NCBI GenBank assembly: GCA_017452545.1
Contig: JAFTME010000107.1
Span: forward strand, 828-64,827
DNA: 64,000 nucleotides
DNA from: Clostridia bacterium
GTDB lineage: Bacteria > Bacillota > Clostridia > Oscillospirales > CAG-272
Direction of reading: 5' to 3'
The first letter of the stretch is position 1; every line of letters begins with the position of its first letter. The notes below the pieces were generated by a model that saw only the letters and a list, made by a program, of their open reading frames with translations, searched no databases and was not told the origin of the DNA. This document shows positions 2,296-36,986 of this stretch, piece after piece. A program made the translations under genes and the position numbers.

Positions 2296-2413
2296 GACAG
2301 TCTCCTTTTCTCGTTGCCGCAGCTTTATGCGGTCGCTTATGTTTATTAACCTATATTATATCACACACTAAACGCAAATTCAAGTAAAAAATCGTATCCG
2401 TCGCCATTTTTTG

Positions 2414-2451
2414 CAAAAAAAGCCGCCCGAGCCTGTGTAAGCCCGAGCGGC
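2414..2451 (-). terminator. rho-independent terminator of the 903-aa gene
   Basis: On the minus-strand RNA, GCCGCUCGGGC..GCUCGGGCGGC forms an 11-bp stem (two G-U pairs) followed by U7. Confidence 0.6.
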
Positions 2452-2456
2452 ATCAA

Positions 2457-5168
2457 TTACGGCAGCCGTTCGCTGCCCTTTTTTCTGATTCTCATAATAG
2501 CGAAAAATCCCGCGGTCGTCAGAAGCAATGCTGCAAACGCCAACAGCGGAACGAAGCGTTGCTCATCCTTCGCCCCCCCAGCATCGGCATCTACGCTTTC
2601 ACGGGAAGCGAGAATGCTCTCACGCAGCGCATCCGCATCCTGATCCCTGCTCCAGCCCTCGATCTGCATCATATACAGGCGTACCGTCTCGACTTGCGTC
2701 GATATGGGCTCCACCGTGATCAGCACGGAATGACAAGCACCCGTGTTTTTGAGCATACGTCCCGTCATGGCAAGAGTCTCCATCTCCCCGCTTCGCACCA
2801 CGGCGCTGCCGACCATTCGGAAATTATCACCGAACAACGTCACGCTGACCTTGGCATCCACGGGGTTGCCGTTTTTGTCGGTCACGGCAAGCGTCGCGGA
2901 AACGGCATCGCATACCGAAAACTTTTCCGGTACAGCATAGGAATAGGTCAGCGCTCCGCAGCCTCGGCCGCTCATTTCCGCCAGCAGCACGCGTCCAAAG
3001 CGACTGCCGCCGTCCATGGAAAGCGATTCGCAGTCAAAGCCCGCATTCCATCCGAGCGTACCCAGCGCCGAGGTGAAATTCCAATACTCGTAGCTGCCCG
3101 CATACGTCTGTCGGTCCAGCTCCTCCAGCGTACATTCATAAACGGTACGGCTCTGCGTTGTCTTGCCCGACAGAACACTCCATTTGGAAAGCCCGAAATA
3201 AGGCAGCGCAAAAGCAGTGACCTCTGCTGCCGCGTTGGTGTCAATGCCCGCAATCAGCGTAGCCAATACCGTCTCGGCATCGCTGTCCTGCGTAATATGA
3301 ACGGTAAAGCCGTCCACCGCGCGGTTTCCGAAATACAGGTGGTATAAATACGCATACGAAAGCGACAGAGCAAGCCCTGTGCAGTCCGCCGGCGGTGTCC
3401 AGACAACCGTTCCCGTGTTTGCAACACATTCATACCCCGCCACACCCGAAAGCAGCGACTCAACCGTCGGTATATTTTTTGTCGCGCCAGTTGATTGCTC
3501 GTAATACATCGCCGCCTGTACGCCTTCAATCCCGTTTTGCAGAATATCCGCGTTCAAGCCAAACGGCGCGCGGTGATTTTCCAGCATCAGCGCAAAGAAG
3601 TCATCTCCGCATCCAAGATCCTCCAGCATGCGGCAAACGCCCTCCAGCAGCGTCTCCGAGGAGCAGATCCCCTGCGCCTCGCCCTGCGGTGTGTCCGTAA
3701 GCGACAAATAGACACGCGTTTCCGGGCTGTAAGCCGCCACAGCATTTTTCGTCAACGCCAAAAGGAGCGCCGTATTGAGCAAATAATCGCGAAGCGACTG
3801 TGTTCCGACGTCAAAGCTTGTCGTCGTATCCAAGCCCATACCGGGAACGATTCCCGTGGGCAGCGCATCGCCGACCTCGCCGTATTTTGCAAACAGATAC
3901 GAAAGCGCCGCACCGTATGCACGTTGCGCCTCTGCCGTCTGCAGCAGAACACCGAGATACTGTCCGTCCACCGTCGTATCAGATGCGTCAACGGTAAACG
4001 GAAGCGCGTAGCCGCGCGCATCCGGCTCGATCAAAAGCCGCAGCGTCAGCTTCATACCGATGGCAAGCAGCGGCTCGGTTTGATTGAGCAGCGCATCGAT
4101 ATACTGCCGGTCAAAGGAATAATACGCGCCGTCAAACTCATACGCCTCAACGCTGCTGTCCTCGGCAGCAAACAGGCGATTCAGATATACATCCACCATG
4201 GCAGTTCCCGCATAAACGCGCTGTGCAACGGCACTATCCTCCGCGTAAACGCCCTTAAACCCGGGTAGCGTCGCAACGCTCTCTCCCGCGTACGAGGAAA
4301 CGGCACGATGAATGGCAACCGTCGGCTCCGCCATCGGGACGGTGTTGCCGTATTTGTCCTTGAGGGCAACAGCATACCTCGCATTCGCCTCCAAAAATAC
4401 GGGCGCATCGACGGTAAAGGTAAAGCGGTTGGACATATTGTTGGTATGCAGCGGCAGCGGATTGCGCTCAAGCATCTGCTGCAGCGTTTCAAAGGGCAAC
4501 AGGCGGTACAGCAAAATGCTGCCGCCCGAGAAGTCAACCACCGAGTCGGTACGAACCGTTCCCTGCACCGTCACCGTCTGAAGCGTCGGGTCGTAGGTGC
4601 AAGCGGTGATGCTGCCATGCGTTTGCGCCAGTTGCCTGTAATACGAGGCGCGTGCGATACGGTAAACGCTGAGCTGACCGCTCTTAACGTCCTTGCATTC
4701 GATGCGAAGCTGCTCGATCTCATCGACCTCGTCGATATAGGCGTAATACACCGTTTTCTCCGACTGTGGTGCGATCTGCAACGAATACGTGCCGCTCTGC
4801 TCCTTGCCATCGGCACCGTGCCAAACATATTCCAGCAAAAGCTCGGTGCAAGAGGAACGGTTTGCGATCAACAGCTGCAAGGCATTGTTTTTCGTTTTTC
4901 CTTCATAAGCCACAAGCGAGGCATACAGCGCAGCGTTACGCTGCTCCATATAGAAATCAATTCCCTGTGTGTTGTTCATTTTCAGCACACCGCCATCCGC
5001 CTCCCAAAGGTCGGCAGAAAACTGTGCGCGATACTCCTCGCTCTGCACAGGATACGCCGTACCGTCCTGCTCAGCGGCCGACGTAGGCACGGTAAGGAGC
5101 TGCAACAGCATGGCAAGCAGCAGGCAAAGCGCGATCATATTCGATTTTCCGTATACACGGCGTACCAT
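2457..5168 (-). CDS. large surface protein, unknown function (signal peptide plus C-terminal TM anchor)
   Basis: 903 aa. AAGGAGG SD. N-terminal hydrophobic signal ending TSA-AEQ. C-terminal hydrophobic helix LLAFAALLLTTAGFFAIM followed by RIRKKGS. I recognise no catalytic motif. Confidence 0.75.
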   Translation of the reverse strand: MVRRVYGKSNMIALCLLLAMLLQLLTVPTSAAEQDGTAYPVQSEEYRAQFSADLWEADGGVLKMNNTQGIDFYMEQRNAALYASLVAYEGKTKNNALQLLIANRSSCTELLLEYVWHGADGKEQSGTYSLQIAPQSEKTVYYAYIDEVDEIEQLRIECKDVKSGQLSVYRIARASYYRQLAQTHGSITACTYDPTLQTVTVQGTVRTDSVVDFSGGSILLYRLLPFETLQQMLERNPLPLHTNNMSNRFTFTVDAPVFLEANARYAVALKDKYGNTVPMAEPTVAIHRAVSSYAGESVATLPGFKGVYAEDSAVAQRVYAGTAMVDVYLNRLFAAEDSSVEAYEFDGAYYSFDRQYIDALLNQTEPLLAIGMKLTLRLLIEPDARGYALPFTVDASDTTVDGQYLGVLLQTAEAQRAYGAALSYLFAKYGEVGDALPTGIVPGMGLDTTTSFDVGTQSLRDYLLNTALLLALTKNAVAAYSPETRVYLSLTDTPQGEAQGICSSETLLEGVCRMLEDLGCGDDFFALMLENHRAPFGLNADILQNGIEGVQAAMYYEQSTGATKNIPTVESLLSGVAGYECVANTGTVVWTPPADCTGLALSLSYAYLYHLYFGNRAVDGFTVHITQDSDAETVLATLIAGIDTNAAAEVTAFALPYFGLSKWSVLSGKTTQSRTVYECTLEELDRQTYAGSYEYWNFTSALGTLGWNAGFDCESLSMDGGSRFGRVLLAEMSGRGCGALTYSYAVPEKFSVCDAVSATLAVTDKNGNPVDAKVSVTLFGDNFRMVGSAVVRSGEMETLAMTGRMLKNTGACHSVLITVEPISTQVETVRLYMMQIEGWSRDQDADALRESILASRESVDADAGGAKDEQRFVPLLAFAALLLTTAGFFAIMRIRKKGSERLP

Positions 5169-5194
5169 GAGGCAGCCTCCTTTCCATGAATTAT

Positions 5195-5893
5195 TTACAA
5201 CTGCGGCATCTCTCCGTAATCGGAATGCCGCTGAATGATCGGTGTACAGTTTCCGCTCGCAACCACGTAGTGCTGCAGCAGTGTAACGCCGAAGGTATCA
5301 AAATAAGCGGTATAATTGGATGTGCTGAGCAGATCCTGCTGCGACGGAATGGCAACACCGTCGGGATGATTGTGCGCCAGGATCACAGACACGGCGTTTT
5401 TGTCCAGCGCCGTCTTAAGCATACTGCGCATATTGACCGACAGCGTGCTCACACTGCCCTTGGCAAGAAGCACGCAATCCAGCATTCGCATCTTGCTGTC
5501 AAACATCAGCATATACAAATGCTCCTCCGAAAGCCCCGCAAACTGCGGAACCAAAAACTCTTTGATCTTTTCTACAGTATCATAGCATTTGTAGGTTTTG
5601 CGCTGCTCCAGCTCTCTTGCCCGCTGCATCTGATTGACCACCTTGAGAAACAGCGCCGCACCGTGCCCCATTCCCTCAACCGCCGTCAACTCGTCAACGG
5701 ATGCATGAAACACGCCGTCCAGTGTATGAAAGCGCTCCAAAAGGCGGTGTGCCAGCGCGTTGGTATCTCTTCGCGGAATGGCATAAAACAGCAGCAGCTC
5801 CAGCAGCTCGTGCTGCTGAAAGGAATCTCCGCCCTCCCGCTCAAAGCGTTGGCGCAATCGGTCGCGATGACCGTCATGTAAATGCTGTGCCAT
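5195..5893 (-). CDS. radC: RadC-family JAB-domain protein
   Basis: 232 aa. Has the HhH-like N-terminal half and the JAMM-like motif ILAHNHPDG..PSQQD. Confidence 0.9.
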   Translation of the reverse strand: MAQHLHDGHRDRLRQRFEREGGDSFQQHELLELLLFYAIPRRDTNALAHRLLERFHTLDGVFHASVDELTAVEGMGHGAALFLKVVNQMQRARELEQRKTYKCYDTVEKIKEFLVPQFAGLSEEHLYMLMFDSKMRMLDCVLLAKGSVSTLSVNMRSMLKTALDKNAVSVILAHNHPDGVAIPSQQDLLSTSNYTAYFDTFGVTLLQHYVVASGNCTPIIQRHSDYGEMPQL

Positions 5894-5930
5894 TGTACTA
5901 CCTCCGAATTTTTTATATCAACCGTCGGTT

Positions 5931-6884
5931 TTATTTTTCAACCGCAGTTTTCTTTTCTTGATTGACCGGAATTTGTGCCAGCACGACCGCCGCAAGCATC
6001 AGCGCGCAGCCGATCCACTCGCGCCCCGACATACTCTCATTCAGAAGGAGCATACCGGAAACCGTTGCAAATACCGCCTCAAGGCTGAACAGGATCGAAA
6101 CGACCGTCGGGTTGGAGCCCTTCTGGGCAACGATCTGCAGCGTGTAAGCAACGCCGCTGGAGAACACACCGACGTACAGCAGCGACGGCAGGCAAGCCAT
6201 CATATCGGACATAGTCAGCGGCTCTCTGAAAACAGCGACAAAAACGGCCGATTCCAATGTGACCACAATAAATTGCATCAAGGATAGCGCGAGTCCGTTC
6301 ACCTTGACCGTAAAATGATCGATCAAAAGGATCTGAACGGCAAAGGTAAACGCACAGATCATGACGTAAACGTCACCGGTCTGAATGGTAAACGCCTCGC
6401 TGACGCAAAGAAAATATAAGCCAAAGACAGCCAGAACCACGCTGCCCCAAACGGTGATCCCCACACGCTTTTTCAAAAACAGCCCCAGCAGTGGAACCAG
6501 AACGATGTACAACGCTGTAATAAAGCCTGCCTTGCCGCTCGAGGTGTCCGCGTTGATGCCGAACTGCTGCAAATTGGCAGAAGCGGTCAACGCCGTACCG
6601 CAAAGCAGACCACCAAGCAGCAGCGTTTTGCGCTGTGCCGCATCACGGCAGCCCAGCACGTCACCAATCTCCTCGGCAGTATGCGGTCTTCCCTCTCGCT
6701 TGGCGCGTGCTCTGCGCCACAGCCATACCGCGAGCAGCATCAAAAAAATGAACACCGCCGCGATCAGGCTGCGCAGCATATTGATCGAAAAAGGCGCAAG
6801 ATAGTCGGCGCAAACGCTCTGCGCGACAAACGCCACCCCCCAGATCATCGCCGTGATCACGGGGAGGACGTTCTGACGAAGCAT
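5931..6884 (-). CDS. EamA/DMT-family transporter
   Basis: A polytopic membrane protein with two EamA-like halves. I place the start at MLRQNVLPV (ATG 6884), 4 nt after the folD stop, rather than at the track start 6929. Confidence 0.85.
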   Translation of the reverse strand: MLRQNVLPVITAMIWGVAFVAQSVCADYLAPFSINMLRSLIAAVFIFLMLLAVWLWRRARAKREGRPHTAEEIGDVLGCRDAAQRKTLLLGGLLCGTALTASANLQQFGINADTSSGKAGFITALYIVLVPLLGLFLKKRVGITVWGSVVLAVFGLYFLCVSEAFTIQTGDVYVMICAFTFAVQILLIDHFTVKVNGLALSLMQFIVVTLESAVFVAVFREPLTMSDMMACLPSLLYVGVFSSGVAYTLQIVAQKGSNPTVVSILFSLEAVFATVSGMLLLNESMSGREWIGCALMLAAVVLAQIPVNQEKKTAVEK

Positions 6885-6888
6885 TTGC

Positions 6889-7755
6889 TTATTCACCCTT
6901 GCCCTCCGCCATACGCGCCTGTGCAGCACGCAACGTATTCTGCATCAGCATGGCAATGGTCATCGGTCCGACACCACCGGGAACGGGCGTAATATAGCCC
7001 GCGACCTCCTTGGCAGACGCAAAGTCCACGTCGCCGGTCAGCTTGCCGTCCGCGCCGCGATTGATACCGACGTCAATGACGACCGCACCCGGCTTGATCA
7101 TATCTCCCGTGATCAGACCCGCACGACCGACCGCCGCAACCAGAATATCCGCGCGGCGCGTCACCTCGGCAAGATCTGCTGTCTTACTATGGCAGACGGT
7201 TACCGTACCGTTCTCACGAAGCAGCAGCATCGACTGCGGCTTACCGACAATATTGGAGCGCCCGACCACAACGCACTCTTTACCCGAAACGCTCACACCC
7301 GTGCTGTGGATCAGCTCCATAACGCCCATGGGCGTGCAGGGCGCCAGCACACCGTCGCCACACATCACGCGACCGACGTTGTAGGGATGGAAGCAGTCTA
7401 CGTCCTTTTCGGGCGAGATACGCAGCAGCACGCGCTGCTCGTCAAGTCCTCGGGGCAGCGGAAGCTGCACGAGAATACCGTCTACCGCGCCGTCTGCATT
7501 AAGCGTATCAATCAGCGCATCCAGCTCCTGCTGCGTGGTTGCCGCAGGCAGGCGATATTCCAGCGCCCGAAAGCCGACCTCCTCGCAAGCACGCTGCTTG
7601 TTGCGAACGTAAACGGCAGAGGCAGGGTCGTCACCGACCAAAATAACTGCCAGCGCAGGCGTATAACCGGTGCTCGCGATCAGCTGCGCGGTCTCCTCTT
7701 TGATATTCTGTCTGATTTGTGCGGCAATCGCCTTGCCATCAATAATAGTTGCCAT
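6889..7755 (-). CDS. folD: bifunctional methylenetetrahydrofolate dehydrogenase/cyclohydrolase
   Basis: The track ORF is over-extended. The conserved N-terminus [15 protein letters not shown] starts at 7755, giving 288 aa. Confidence 0.95.
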
Positions 7756-30433: not shown

Positions 30434-30484
30434 GATCGTTCATCCTCTTCCTCTTTGATCGTTCCACTAAAAAAATACAGAATT

Positions 30485-30513
30485 ATTGTATCATAAATAC
30501 ACCGGAAAGTCAA
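30485..30513 (-). promoter_or_regulatory. sigma-A promoter of pcrA
   Basis: On the minus strand: TTGACT, 17-nt spacer, TACAAT. Confidence 0.55.
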
Positions 30514-30532
30514 TGCGTTCGGTTGTAAAAAT

Positions 30533-30560
30533 TGGGATGCTGCGGTAAGACTTGAACCTG
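30533..30560 (-). other. degenerate copy of a tRNA 3' end (T-arm/acceptor-like), possible att remnant
   Basis: The minus-strand sequence CAGGTTCAAGTCTTACCGCAGCATCCCA aligns with the tRNA-Leu 3' end TGGGTTCAAGTCCCACCACCGGCACCA. The two share an exact 10-mer, GGTTCAAGTC, and are in the same orientation. Confidence 0.4.
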
Positions 30561-30662
30561 CTCGGCTTCACCTTGCTGCAAGTTTGCCTGCCGCGTGATA
30601 TGTTCTGCAATATTTAAAGATCGTACAGCGGCAGGTGGGTTCGAGTTAACCACTCTCGATGC

Positions 30663-30702
30663 AAAAAAGAACCGCTTGGGCATACCCAAGCGGTTCTTTT
30701 TT
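30663..30702 (-). terminator. strong bidirectional terminator closing the islet operon
   Basis: AAAAAAGAACCGCTTGGG-CATA-CCCAAGCGGTTCTTTTTT. Confidence 0.85.
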
Positions 30703-30760
30703 GCGAAAGACTACCTAAACGGAGCAGAATCGAGGTAAAAAAGCCTAAAAGTACACCAGG

Positions 30761-31099
30761 TTAAAGTTGTTTATATAGCAAGGAGATTGTCGACTTAAAA
30801 TACTGTTCTTGGAAATGTGTTAATTCCGCAATCTCTTCCTGCGTAAAAGTCATACCATCCGGTGCAACTACCCATTTATGTTCTATATCATTCTCACGAT
30901 TGATAATGGCTATTATTCTTCCGGTAAACTCAGAAACAGGCTCATTCACGCCTAAAATATAAGCGTCCTCTTCTTCGCCATCTGCCGCCATTGTTCCATT
31001 AATATAGCCATAGTTTATAGGATAATGTATATCCGGATGCTCAGGATGAAAACTTCCAAGTGGTCTGTCAACGGTTACCGTAACAATTGGGCCAATCAT
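30761..31099 (-). CDS. truncated family-I inorganic pyrophosphatase homologue (about 112 aa)
   Basis: YPINYGYINGTMAADGEEEDAYIL parallels the E. coli Ppa segment [23 protein letters not shown]. The first ~40 residues of a full PPase are absent. The ATG overlaps the upstream stop as ATGA. Low-GC codon usage. Confidence 0.65.
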   Translation of the reverse strand: MIGPIVTVTVDRPLGSFHPEHPDIHYPINYGYINGTMAADGEEEDAYILGVNEPVSEFTGRIIAIINRENDIEHKWVVAPDGMTFTQEEIAELTHFQEQYFKSTISLLYKQL

Positions 31100-31443
31100 T
31101 TCCCATTCTCCTTTGCGGTGTTGATAGAGGCAATGAGAATTCGACGGATCGTTCCGCATTGATTATAGAGATCAACAGTTGTTTCTCTGTTCAGAATGTC
31201 GGATTTCACAAACAGCTCCAACCAGTATTCAGTCTCGTAACACTCTTTTAAGGCAATTTGCAATTTGGCAATAAAGTCAGGCTTTCCGTGTGCATAATTT
31301 GCCTCATGGATATTTGCACCAATTGAGGTGGCAGAACGCTCCAATTGATTGACAAGAGAATAATGGCCTTTGATCGTTTCACAGAGTTTAATTATCTTAA
31401 TAGCGAAACCCATAGATAATTCAACGAGCTTATTTTCTTTCAT
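31096..31443 (-). CDS. four-helix-bundle protein (23S rRNA intervening-sequence protein / Avd-like family)
   Basis: Start at MKENKLVE, preceded by GAGGTGAGG. The hallmark QLERSATSIGANIHEA....DF..KL.IALKE..ETEYWL is present. Confidence 0.8.
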   Translation of the reverse strand: MKENKLVELSMGFAIKIIKLCETIKGHYSLVNQLERSATSIGANIHEANYAHGKPDFIAKLQIALKECYETEYWLELFVKSDILNRETTVDLYNQCGTIRRILIASINTAKENGK

Positions 31444-31462
31444 TATCCTCACCTCTGCAAAT

Positions 31463-31491
31463 ATTATAGCATATTTAATGAAATATTGCTA
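31463..31491 (-). promoter_or_regulatory. candidate extended -10 promoter for the four-helix-bundle gene
   Basis: On the minus strand: TGCTATAAT, with a poor -35 (TAGCAA). Confidence 0.35.
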
Positions 31492-31649
31492 CGCAATATG
31501 AAATAATCCTTTGGATTATGAAATATTTTGCCTTAGCGGCAAAATGTGAAATAAAATAAATCCCTCATACGCCGCTGCGTATTTCATAGCGTCAGCTATT
31601 TCATAACGCGAAGCGTTATTTCACAAATCCCGCAAGGGATTTATTTCAT
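31478..31649. repeat. mirror-symmetric array of seven mini-hairpins
   Basis: Hairpins at 31483-31499, 31503-31519, 31525-31545, 31567-31582, 31586-31599, 31603-31619 and 31625-31642. Stems are 5-8 bp and all differ in sequence, but six begin ATA/ATT and end TAT/AAT (the seventh runs AAATCCC/GGGATTT). Spacers are GAA(AT) in the left arm and TTC(AC) in the right arm. Confidence 0.85.
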
Positions 31650-31651
31650 TG

Positions 31652-31692
31652 AAAAGAACCCACACTTGTCGTAGACAAATGCGGGTTCTTTT
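31652..31692 (-). terminator. terminator directly after tRNA-Leu
   Basis: AAAAGAACCC / GGGTTCTTTT outer stem with an inner TTGTC/GACAA stem. A U-run follows on the minus strand. Confidence 0.8.
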
Positions 31693-31693
31693 C

Positions 31694-31779
31694 TGGTGCC
31701 GGTGGTGGGACTTGAACCCACACGATGTTGCCATCAGAGGATTTTGAGTCCACCTCGTCTGCCATTCCGACACACCGGC
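31694..31779 (-). tRNA. tRNA-Leu (anticodon CAA), class II with a long variable arm, CCA encoded
   Basis: Manual fold. Acceptor GCCGGTG/CACCGGC, anticodon loop CTCAAAA, T-arm GTGGG-TTCAAGT-CCCAC, 86 nt. Confidence 0.88.
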
Positions 31780-31788
31780 GCGAGATGT

Positions 31789-31817
31789 ATTATAGCACAC
31801 TTCCTTTACAAAATCAA
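31789..31817 (-). promoter_or_regulatory. sigma-A promoter of tRNA-Leu
   Basis: On the minus strand: TTGATT, 17-nt spacer, TATAAT, ending about 9 nt before the mature 5' end. Confidence 0.6.
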
Positions 31818-36742: not shown

Positions 36743-36751
36743 ACATCCAAC

Positions 36752-36915
36752 CGATAGAGGCGCATCTTGAGATCAGTACCCCCTGCATATGCGGCAGACC
36801 GTGCCGACGGGGTGAAAGGCTCGGGTGCCGAAGATACCCTGTGGTACAAGGGTGTTCTGGCAACAGGAAATAAGATTTTTGTTGCTGTCGCAGAAATGCG
36901 GAGCGCTATCTGAGT
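36752..36915 (+). promoter_or_regulatory. lysine riboswitch (L-box) aptamer
   Basis: P1 forms from GATAGAGGCGC...GAGCGCTATC. Conserved core elements are present: AGAGGCGC, GAGATCAGTA, GGGGTGAAAGG, TGCCGAAG and CTGTCGCA. It sits ahead of dapA-dapB-lysA. Confidence 0.85.
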
Positions 36916-36986
36916 TTGATCCAATATATCCAACCGGTACGGGTGTGCTTTCCCTGTGCCCACTTACGGATATTTGTGCAAATGAC

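Follow-up and report, generated by a model that had tools for sequence, protein, structure and literature searches.

In its published description, Gut-1 (Rfam RF01706) is no more than a motif of three covarying hairpins from metagenomes of the human gut, rated a certain RNA on the basis of this covariation (Weinberg 2010, PMC2864571). Rfam carries it as a 77-nt entry of type 'Gene; sRNA'. Our literature search found no work on Gut-1 after 2010 and no expression data, and it has stood since then as an orphan without context or function. GCGNAGC and GCGNNAGC form DNA mini-hairpins whose stability far exceeds that of their RNA equivalents and to which single-strand-binding protein binds poorly (PMC13037366). 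They occur naturally at the primase sites of G4, St-1, and alpha3, at ssiA of RSF1010 (CCGAAGG), and in the N4 hairpin promoters (PMC13037366; PMC3201870). We analyzed a 64,000-nt stretch of a contig from a Clostridia bacterium (GCA_017452545.1, JAFTME010000107.1), hereafter the window, which carries an array of seven short hairpins between a tRNA-Leu gene and a gene of the PF05635 family. This locus gives the full element, here called E, a mirror-symmetric double Gut-1 array of ~180 nt and twice the size of the curated motif. It also gives a fixed address, immediately behind stable-RNA operon terminators, and a partner family, the PF05635 four-helix-bundle proteins (4HB) known from 23S rRNA intervening sequences and as Avd of retroelements, followed by a slot for variable cargo. 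Gut-1 thus represents no more than the 5′ half of E, and E belongs to a known, functionally unexplained family whose full architecture and context are new.

By cmscan, positions 31576–31651 of the reverse strand align to the whole of RF01706 (model positions 1–77 of 77) with 65.4 bits, where the gathering score is 50. The sequence-only reading that had pointed to the array recognized no named repeat or RNA family in it; its tRNA-proximal half is in fact Gut-1. The alignment contains the three covarying hairpins split by UGAAAU, with compensatory changes in orthologues. A second match, on the forward strand at 31470–31529, reaches 47.2 bits, just under the gathering score; read on that strand, the other half is a Gut-1-like array in its own right. 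In one related copy (L200), the 3′ half scores 63.1 bits for RF01706 on the opposite strand, and all tested 5′ halves gave matches above threshold in one orientation. The flanks of the Gut-1 seeds in the Weinberg alignment already contain the mirrored second half. One seed lineage has GUGAUAU...AUAUCAC in place of GUGAAAU...AUUUCAC, one seed copy lies behind a tRNA, and some are in tandem with a 240-nt period. E and Gut-1 thus share three hairpins split by (G)UGAAAU and a gut metagenome or Clostridia source, whereas the published description is without the inverted second half, the terminator-like hairpin hp0, the long-range pairing, the links to tRNA/rRNA and to a 4HB cassette, and the DNA-type loop rule reported below.

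E is built of two opposed sets of three or four units, each consisting of an ATTTCAY heptamer, or word, and a short perfect palindrome. In the window the module is read from the reverse strand, beginning with the terminator-like hairpin hp0 (31651–31693; GAAAAGAACCC...GGGTTCTTTTC, located from sequence and folds). hp0 is flanked by an A-tract and a T-tract, starts right after the CCA of the tRNA, is readable in both directions, and is counted here within the repeated module. The L-half (31576–31650), which corresponds to the full length of the Gut-1 model, runs from word0 (ATTTCA, forward strand 31643–31648) through hp1 (31625–31642), a word, hp2 (31605–31617), a word, hp3 (31588–31597), and a word to the start of hp4 (31569–31580; ACGCAGCGGCGT on the reverse strand), whose position is shared by all copies. 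The centre (31546–31568), which takes part in a fold pairing and contains the breakpoints of half exchange, reads AUGA-GGGAUUUAUUU-UAUUUCAC on the reverse strand. The R-half (31479–31553), the one matched by RF01706 on the forward strand, comprises UAUUUCAC, hp5 (31525–31545), AUUUCAU, hp6 (31505–31517), AUUUCAU, hp7 (31485–31497), and a last AUUUCAU. All seven palindromes were read directly from the sequence and are given in forward-strand coordinates.

The seven hairpins and eight heptamer words listed in the sequence-only reading are all present. Only the position of GTGAAATA needs correction, from 31545 to 31546. TGAAATA occurs on the forward strand at 31479, 31499, 31519, and 31547 and on the reverse strand at 31580–31586, 31597–31603, 31617–31623, and 31642–31648, so that 8 of the 11 matches in the 64-kb window are concentrated in 172 nt. 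The whole-window count is by itself unremarkable (11 for 5.3 expected; 3 of 100 shuffles reach 11). Compared with dinucleotide shuffles, the folding of the array gives z = −8.5 and −8.9 for the two strands, a value equaled by none of 200 shuffles. The reading had allowed that the array might be ordinary AT-rich intergenic DNA, an explanation that is closed by the base composition: the genome has 55–57% GC and E lies inside an island of 40% GC.

A three-word pattern scan with one genome per species yielded at least 33 loci. The true matches among those listed come almost entirely from metagenome-assembled genomes (MAGs) of human and ruminant guts assigned to Clostridia, Eubacteriales, Oscillospiraceae, Ruminococcaceae, Acutalibacteraceae, and Christensenellaceae, and from Akkermansia. 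Together with the loci anchored on the 4HB protein they provide 72 distinct copies of E, almost all from MAGs of gut Clostridia. The 33 loci follow a common plan: hp0, AA, (C/U)GAAAU with hp1, three units of GUGAAAU plus hairpin, GUGAG, a copy of the 3′ arm of hp1, AUUUCAUUUCAC, and three units of hairpin plus AUUUCAC. The conservation of words and stem ends and the inversion of the two arms, both noted earlier from the window alone, therefore recur elsewhere, and 'recombination-site debris', one of the origins then envisaged, is a poor fit to so conserved a module. On this comparative evidence, the window array is real, conserved, and selected, and is one copy of an element of gut Clostridia that is modular and intergenic. 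E had no BLAST match in GenBank phages or in PLSDB plasmids. A loose pattern scan of viral contigs returned mostly chance matches in AT-rich giant-virus contigs, the sole true copy being that of the IMG/VR viral contig L059. Directly behind this GC-rich copy (5185–5240) stand four tandem 11-bp repeats (GGTAACTTGCC), and a gene downstream of it reads, in our judgment, as a terminase large-subunit gene (no Pfam family found); the layout resembles an origin or pac region.

Selection on pairing had been proposed from the paralogous units of the array, and the orthologous copies confirm it. RNAalifold, applied to 40 diverse copies, predicts 22 pairs with compensatory changes, located in hp1, hp5, hp6, and hp7. 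Within one element the stems have all diverged while the words are identical, which indicates a constraint on the words exceeding base pairing. A long-range pairing is also conserved. In the window, GGGATTTATTT of the centre (forward strand 31554–31564) is complementary to AAATAAATCCC (forward strand 31636–31646), that is, to word0 and the 5′ arm of hp1. The minimum-free-energy fold of the window element uses this pairing, which competes with hp1 itself. Perfect complementarity of at least 10 nt between these segments is found in 63 of the 72 copies and falls into at least six covarying sequence classes. Two other tertiary arrangements were considered and set aside. Loop–loop 'kissing' between the halves shows no position-specific complementarity. 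A ladder of word:word helices is predicted by RNAalifold, but those pairs never vary; the ladder is possible and unsupported, since the G-to-A and C-to-T changes of window-type elements misfit the nested register and other lineages mix non-complementary words. In many copies (for example L139, L177, L219, L227, L059), hp5 and hp7 contain conserved tandem G·A/A·G mismatches in the stem (AUCGAAC...GUGAGAU, forward strand). On the other strand these would be pyrimidine–pyrimidine mismatches, a strand asymmetry.

The sequences of the hairpin loops argue for a structure formed in DNA. On the forward strand, the 3′-half loops are C-GAA-G, C-GCA-G, C-GCAA-G, C-GTAA-G, C-GTTA-G, and C-GATA-G, and the 5′-half loops are C-TTC-G, C-TGC-G, and C-TTGC-G, which are the 3′-half types seen from the other strand. 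Among the tetraloops, 17 are GNRA and 16 are GNYA. Lacking a purine preference at the third position, they follow a cGNNAg rule rather than the GNRA rule of RNA. In the 72 copies, the motif NN-C-G-N(1–2)-A-G-N′N′ occurs once forward and 191 times reverse in the L-halves, and 112 times forward and four times reverse in the R-halves. In total, 303 occurrences lie on the ATTTCAY strand and five on the other. Within the window its density is 21.5 per kb in E and 1.4 per kb elsewhere. These loops fit the DNA mini-hairpin type, and the functional unit apparently combines an ATTTCAY word with a DNA mini-hairpin; on each strand these units run 5′ to 3′ away from the centre. G·U pairs are nearly absent: a strict parse of 298 unique E hairpins counts 1,296 Watson–Crick pairs, six G·U, one A·C, and four others, compared with 969, 14, five, and four in 68 unique hp0 hairpins, so that G·U makes up ~0.5% of stem pairs in E and 1.4% in hp0. 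The cGNAg/cGNNAg loops, the flipped strand polarity, and the scarcity of G·U pairs form a signature that questions the assignment of Gut-1 as RNA, and we favor the interpretation that E folds as DNA. The sequence-only reading had suggested a protein-binding array or a single-stranded DNA or RNA structural element; both proposals are plausible, and loop chemistry and strand polarity favor an element acting at the DNA level.

The genomic address of E is fixed. In 20 of the 33 listed pattern loci, a tRNA gene of the same direction precedes E at 21–45 nt, a distance equal to the length of hp0; these tRNAs are of many identities. The proposed link with tRNA-Leu therefore holds as a tRNA linkage and fails as an exclusive one. 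hp0 precedes every copy for which upstream flank sequence is available, and hp0 hairpins found behind tRNA-Leu, Tyr, Arg, and Pro have the apex TTGTCTAC(N)GACAA in common. In L183 the order is 23S-5S-tRNA-tRNA-hp0-E. Downstream of E the context varies between promoters, terminators, and convergent genes; at most loci a strong terminator precedes E and the next promoter follows it, and neither strand of E has a conserved promoter. In L199, E separates tRNA-Arg from tRNA-His, which starts ~9 nt past the last word. Many copies are found at contig ends and several MAGs supply several contigs, which fits a multicopy repeat near stable-RNA operons. A T-arm-like motif, CTAAAAA..GYGAGAGTTCGAAWTCATACGCAAAA, recurs just 3′ of the last word at many loci (L303 2743–2800, L248 3850–3900, L227, L228, L148, L159) and is sometimes terminated by CCA ahead of the next hp0.

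E is linked to the 4HB gene as well as to tRNAs. Among 63 metagenome loci encoding a 4HB 75–97% identical to that of the window and having adequate upstream sequence, 53 carry E directly upstream (at least 3+3 words within 280 nt), a co-occurrence that the sequence-only reading had proposed to check, and 42 have an upstream tRNA, of at least 15 different kinds. Conversely, Pfam was run on 125 open reading frames (ORFs) beside E. Among the 25 neighbor families listed of 138 matched, PF05635 comes top with four members, a count equaled by a generic methyltransferase domain; every other recurrent family is a broad, generic domain. In the window, the order on the reverse strand is promoter, tRNA-Leu, hp0, array, promoter, 4HB gene, pyrophosphatase-like gene, second terminator, and pcrA. 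tRNA-Leu(CAA) (31694–31779, reverse strand; ARAGORN; Rfam tRNA 52 bits) has its own promoter, TTGATT-17-TATAAT, at 31817–31789, and its CCA end directly abuts the module. The flanks are those first described, the tRNA-Leu terminator on one side and the 4HB promoter on the other, with the end hairpin covering the −35 region. This promoter has an extended −10 (TGCTATAAT; TGnTATAAT; 31463–31471, reverse strand, with the −10 at 31463–31468), its −35 position falls inside hp7, and its spacer contains the last word, so that the R-half carries the promoter of the cassette. The site was missed by a simple promoter consensus scan; equivalent promoters abut the last word at other loci.

The 4HB gene (31096–31443, reverse strand) encodes an 'Avd-like' protein of 115 aa (PF05635, 6.6e-26; TIGR02436, 8.9e-29), whose nearest solved structure is that of an uncharacterized protein with five chains in the entry (2RLD, E = 1.6e-22). 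Its stop codon overlaps the ATG of the cargo gene (ATGA, 31096–31099), which encodes a 112-aa pyrophosphatase-like protein (30761–31099, reverse strand; partial match to PF00719, 3.6e-6). Across the 4HB loci L241 to L320, the following gene likewise starts at or within the 4HB stop and is of ~40 unrelated kinds, among them NUDIX, MazG-like, histidine phosphatase, P-loop kinase, ASCH, short-chain dehydrogenase, and pyrophosphatase-like genes. The overlap looks like a fixed junction for variable cargo. The 3′ end of the cassette (30663–30760, reverse strand) consists of a conserved segment at ~30703–30760 and a second A/T-flanked terminator hairpin at 30663–30702; a ~60-nt segment (CTGGTGTACTTTT..CTTTTTTACCTCG) and an hp0-like hairpin are conserved after unrelated cargo, including a MazG-like gene in L272. 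Neither the 4HB nor the pyrophosphatase-like protein matched the PADLOC defense models, and searching viral contigs for 4HB homologues gave two matches only, both at contig edges beside tRNAs. Further E copies are often found downstream of the cassette; tandem arrays are possible and the copy number is strain-dependent. At a tRNA-Tyr locus of one species, one contig has a single decayed copy after the cassette (L248 3943–4120), and two others have four tandem hp0-E modules (L249/L257 3943–4850) with a period of 232–272 nt, past which the contigs immediately diverge; this suggests a rearrangement hot spot. Partial second copies (L248, L288/L289) were considered as integration scars and proved to be decayed full or half copies without clean junctions.

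The module of the window lies in acquired DNA. The low-GC island (~30434–31690; ~40% GC in a genome of 55–57%) spans hp0, E, the 4HB gene, the pyrophosphatase-like gene, and the second terminator. In two relatives with a PcrA 81% identical (L322 and L323), the synteny of aldolase, DUF4082 protein, tRNA-Leu(CAA), and pcrA is preserved, and the gap between tRNA and pcrA holds a short terminator and ~60 nt, without hp0, E, the 4HB gene, or the pyrophosphatase-like gene. The empty site together with the drop in GC identifies the block from hp0 to the second terminator as acquired DNA, an insertion. Between the second terminator and the pcrA promoter, T-arm- or acceptor-like fragments (GTGGTTAACTCGAACCCAC; GCAGGTTCAAGTCTTACCGCAGCATCCCA) are recognizable at 30520–30660 (reverse strand) without an ARAGORN call. 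L321, whose PcrA is 94% identical, has this stretch conserved ahead of pcrA, and the fragments may be a decayed tRNA or the remnant of an old attachment site.

Comparison of the 72 copies showed that E is made of modules that reassort. With shared halves defined by at least 93% identity and unshared halves by at most 70%, and all pairs of copies compared, 28 pairs share both halves, eight only the L-half, and five only the R-half. The window and L297 agree in R-half, promoter, and 4HB, but their L-halves are unrelated; L261 and L249_A are the converse case, sharing the L-half and not the R-half. The breakpoints fall at the central ATTT(T/C)ATTTCAC. The R-half travels with the cassette, while the L-half and hp0 do not; hp0 varies independently of both halves, and one and the same hairpin can be found beside different neighbors. 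This reassortment of hp0 and of single units weakens site-specific recombination at the centre alone as an explanation. Tyrosine recombinases were seen near only 3–4 of ~200 loci, without fixed position, and PF00589 in 2 of the 125 ORFs. The words form 'dialects'. Inner words are ATGAAAT and ATTTCAT in window-type elements and GTGAAAT and ATTTCAC in canonical ones, a paired change within the element, and hybrid elements have different, non-complementary word sets in their two halves. In Akkermansia (L124), mirror arrays with GTTATATC/GATATAAC as their words stand on both sides of a distant 4HB gene. The words thus seem to track the 4HB lineage, making 4HB a candidate reader of the words, a role suggested by its adjacency, by the overlap with its promoter, and by a pentamer-type family facing four or five words per half.

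E also resembles the mini-hairpin initiation signals. E has in common with those of G4/St-1/alpha3, RSF1010 ssiA/ssiB, and the N4 hairpin promoters (PMC13037366) the GCGAAGC, GCGTTAGC, and CCGAAGG type of hairpin, with C–G closure and a G...A loop. As in the G4 and RSF1010 signals, a single-stranded recognition sequence would stand beside the hairpin, and the two arms have opposite functional strands, like ssiA and ssiB; a C–G-closed GNA/GNNA hairpin next to such a sequence is predicted in the 72 copies. E differs in that each arm bears three or four hairpins where those signals have one, and in being chromosomal, multicopy, and located behind tRNA genes. No replication initiator or primase was noted among the genes neighboring E in the window (pyrophosphatase-like, PcrA, NUDIX, and glycosidase-like), and iterons adjoin the element only in the viral contig L059.

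Integron attC sites resemble E in their imperfect inverted repeats, in the conservation of structure over sequence, in separating small, promoter-poor, variable genes, and in forming hybrid sites whose halves accompany different neighbors. We rejected this identity: the words of E (GTGAAAT...ATTTCAC) compare with RYYYAAC...GTTRRRY in reversed order and with G for a conserved T, the element is branched with several hairpins, no integron integrase is found nearby (~200 loci; 125 ORFs), and the cassette has a conserved 4HB leader gene before the variable gene. The 23S rRNA intervening sequences with a PF05635 ORF ('IVP/S23p') and the Avd of diversity-generating retroelements share with our locus the Pfam family, an inverted-repeat setting in or near a stable-RNA operon, and a sporadic, insertion-like distribution. 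Here, however, variable cargo genes come after the 4HB gene. The insertion stands behind a tRNA terminator, outside 23S rRNA, despite the presence of the PF05635 ORF, and neither a reverse transcriptase nor template and variable repeats occur among the window neighbors; no reverse transcriptase family is present either among the 25 neighbor-ORF families listed of 138. On these defining features we rejected both identities.

We lean, at somewhat less than even confidence, towards E being a DNA-level platform of hairpins and words that marks the exchange junctions of tRNA-adjacent cassettes. We rank below it, in this order, a longer Gut-1 RNA, a selfish mosaic repeat, and a duplex operator. As a platform, E would act as DNA. 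On strand separation, through replication or transcription-driven supercoiling, each strand would fold into a stable chain of mini-hairpins that excludes single-strand-binding protein and leaves only the 7-nt words single-stranded. A sequence-specific factor, which might be a pentamer-type 4HB, a host primosome component, or a recombinase, would then read the words, with recombination or priming as the putative outcome. Copies would then exchange hp0, the L-half, and the R-half together with its cassette, using the words and the central ATTTYATTTCAC as junctions. The full element, its address, its partner family, and its sequence signature may also connect three puzzles: Gut-1, the spread of 4HB 'IVP' genes, and the small tRNA-adjacent cassettes of abundant, mostly uncultured gut bacteria. 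A more specific form of this proposal, which we regard as possible and hold less firmly, is that Gut-1 would not be an sRNA gene but half of a DNA-level site made of two diverging arrays of heptamers and DNA mini-hairpins, either the attachment or recombination junction or a strand-symmetric single-strand initiation signal of a previously unrecognized cassette system. This system would be parked behind tRNA/rRNA terminators in gut Clostridia and, in another dialect, in Akkermansia. In it the 4HB 'leader', possibly the word reader, would precede dozens of interchangeable small nucleotide-metabolism genes.

Several observations weigh against a DNA platform. Covariation is expected for DNA and RNA alike, and because of the mirror symmetry an RNA made from either strand would have the same design, UNC loops occupying the 5′ half and GNA loops the 3′ half. 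The E copy within the tRNA cluster of L199 is probably transcribed as an operon spacer, and in lineages having only the Gut-1 half, this half is followed by a terminator-like hairpin. The G·U and A·C counts are tiny (6 and 1 in the strict parse; ~8 and 7 clean cases among 39 and 34 in a loose parse), too small to decide, and compatible with RNA; the minimum-free-energy folds of hp0 gave 53 and 48, which does not discriminate either. The candidate-reader role of 4HB is weakened by its near-neutral net charge (~+1 by our count), unlike the basic Avd, which makes it no obvious nucleic-acid binder, and by its absence beside most copies, the 4HB gene coming directly after E in 5 of the 33 listed pattern loci (~15%). 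Finally, no recombinase, transposase, or primase is present in cis among the neighboring ORFs as a constant partner. These points leave room for E as a structured non-coding RNA of ~180 nt, an appreciable though lesser possibility in our view. It would derive from tRNA/rRNA operon transcripts through read-through or processing, or else be made from the other strand and end at the bidirectional hp0, whose U-tract would provide a natural 3′ end. Its single-stranded heptamers would bind a multimeric RNA-binding protein, as a TRAP-like or CsrB-sponge-like RNA, and the 5′ arm of hp1, with its two mutually exclusive pairings, would act as a switch. An Rfam match exceeding the gathering score, the published rating as a certain RNA, the many compensatory pairs, the conserved alternative pairing of hp1 with the centre, the strict excess of G·U over A·C (6 to 1), the terminator-like hairpin after half-only variants, and L199, where a promoter would not fit, are all in keeping with RNA. 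What tells against it is the usual position between a strong terminator and the next promoter without a conserved promoter on either strand, the G·U share lower than that of hp0, stems averaging only 4.4–4.9 bp in the L-half, which with triloops would be weak as RNA, tetraloops that fit the cGNNAg rule of DNA, a loop polarity reversed between the halves, the non-complementary words of hybrid elements, and a literature that yielded no expression data.

Neutral or selfish spread is a less probable explanation. E would be a mosaic repeat like the repetitive extragenic palindromes and bacterial interspersed mosaic elements (REP/BIME) or the miniature inverted-repeat transposable elements, multiplied by slippage, gene conversion, or an enzyme encoded elsewhere, and tolerated behind terminators as a harmless place, with 4HB and cargo merely riding along. 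Like the REP/BIME of enterobacteria and pseudomonads, E is extragenic, lies at operon 3′ ends, and forms mosaic clusters of palindromes in both orientations with conserved linkers, in several copies per genome, many of them at contig ends; its tandem arrays vary between strains, units and halves reassort, its GC content is low, and it is missing from the syntenic locus of relatives. But REP palindromes have one sequence per family, whereas all seven stems of E differ and only words, stem ends, and loops are kept; E is found in another phylum and is specifically linked to stable-RNA operons and a PF05635 gene, and by the defining features we rejected its identity as a REP element. Moreover, stem length, the AAU...AUU stem ends, the tandem G·A pairs of hp5, and the loop rule are maintained across distant genomes by compensatory change, which implies long-term purifying selection rather than recent copying. 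The 125 neighboring ORFs include no cognate REP-associated tyrosine transposase (RAYT, Y1 type) or other transposase, and no target-site duplication was seen. It is about as doubtful, and slightly more so, that E is an operator or centromere-like array of double-stranded DNA, whose 7-bp words would be bound in both orientations by a dimeric or oligomeric protein, 4HB or a ParB/VirB-like helix-turn-helix protein, repressing the 4HB promoter or insulating it from tRNA read-through. Uniform words beside all-different stems do argue for a word reader over mere pairing, the last word and hp7 overlap the promoter, and the 4HB gene is tightly linked. ATTTCAC is, we presume, the box A heptamer of P1 parS and one base from a chromosomal parS half-site, a sequence that our literature check did not retrieve. 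Duplex binding would, on the other hand, leave perfect palindromes with strand-specific loops unexplained, the word spacing of 16–28 bp is not helix-phased, most copies have no adjoining 4HB gene or promoter, and no ParB-family domain occurs among the 25 neighbor-ORF families listed of 138.

Outside the module, the window contains a lysine riboswitch (RF00168, 78.4 bits) at 36747–36916 of the forward strand, unrelated to the array. Related genes occur in other repeat settings. The Akkermansia sp. MAG contig L124 contains arrays and a distant 4HB gene at 2315–3301 and 5800–6900, including three tandem arrays in which GTGAAAT units are paired with equally oriented units of CGAGATT. Further distant 4HB lineages behind tRNAs (L196, L224; L142) are set within different repeats. 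One has beside it a long pyrimidine/purine inverted repeat (CTTTTCTCTC.../...GAGAGAAAAG), and L142 carries GAAATGAGAAATTA repeats together with six copies of ATTTCACATTGCTC.

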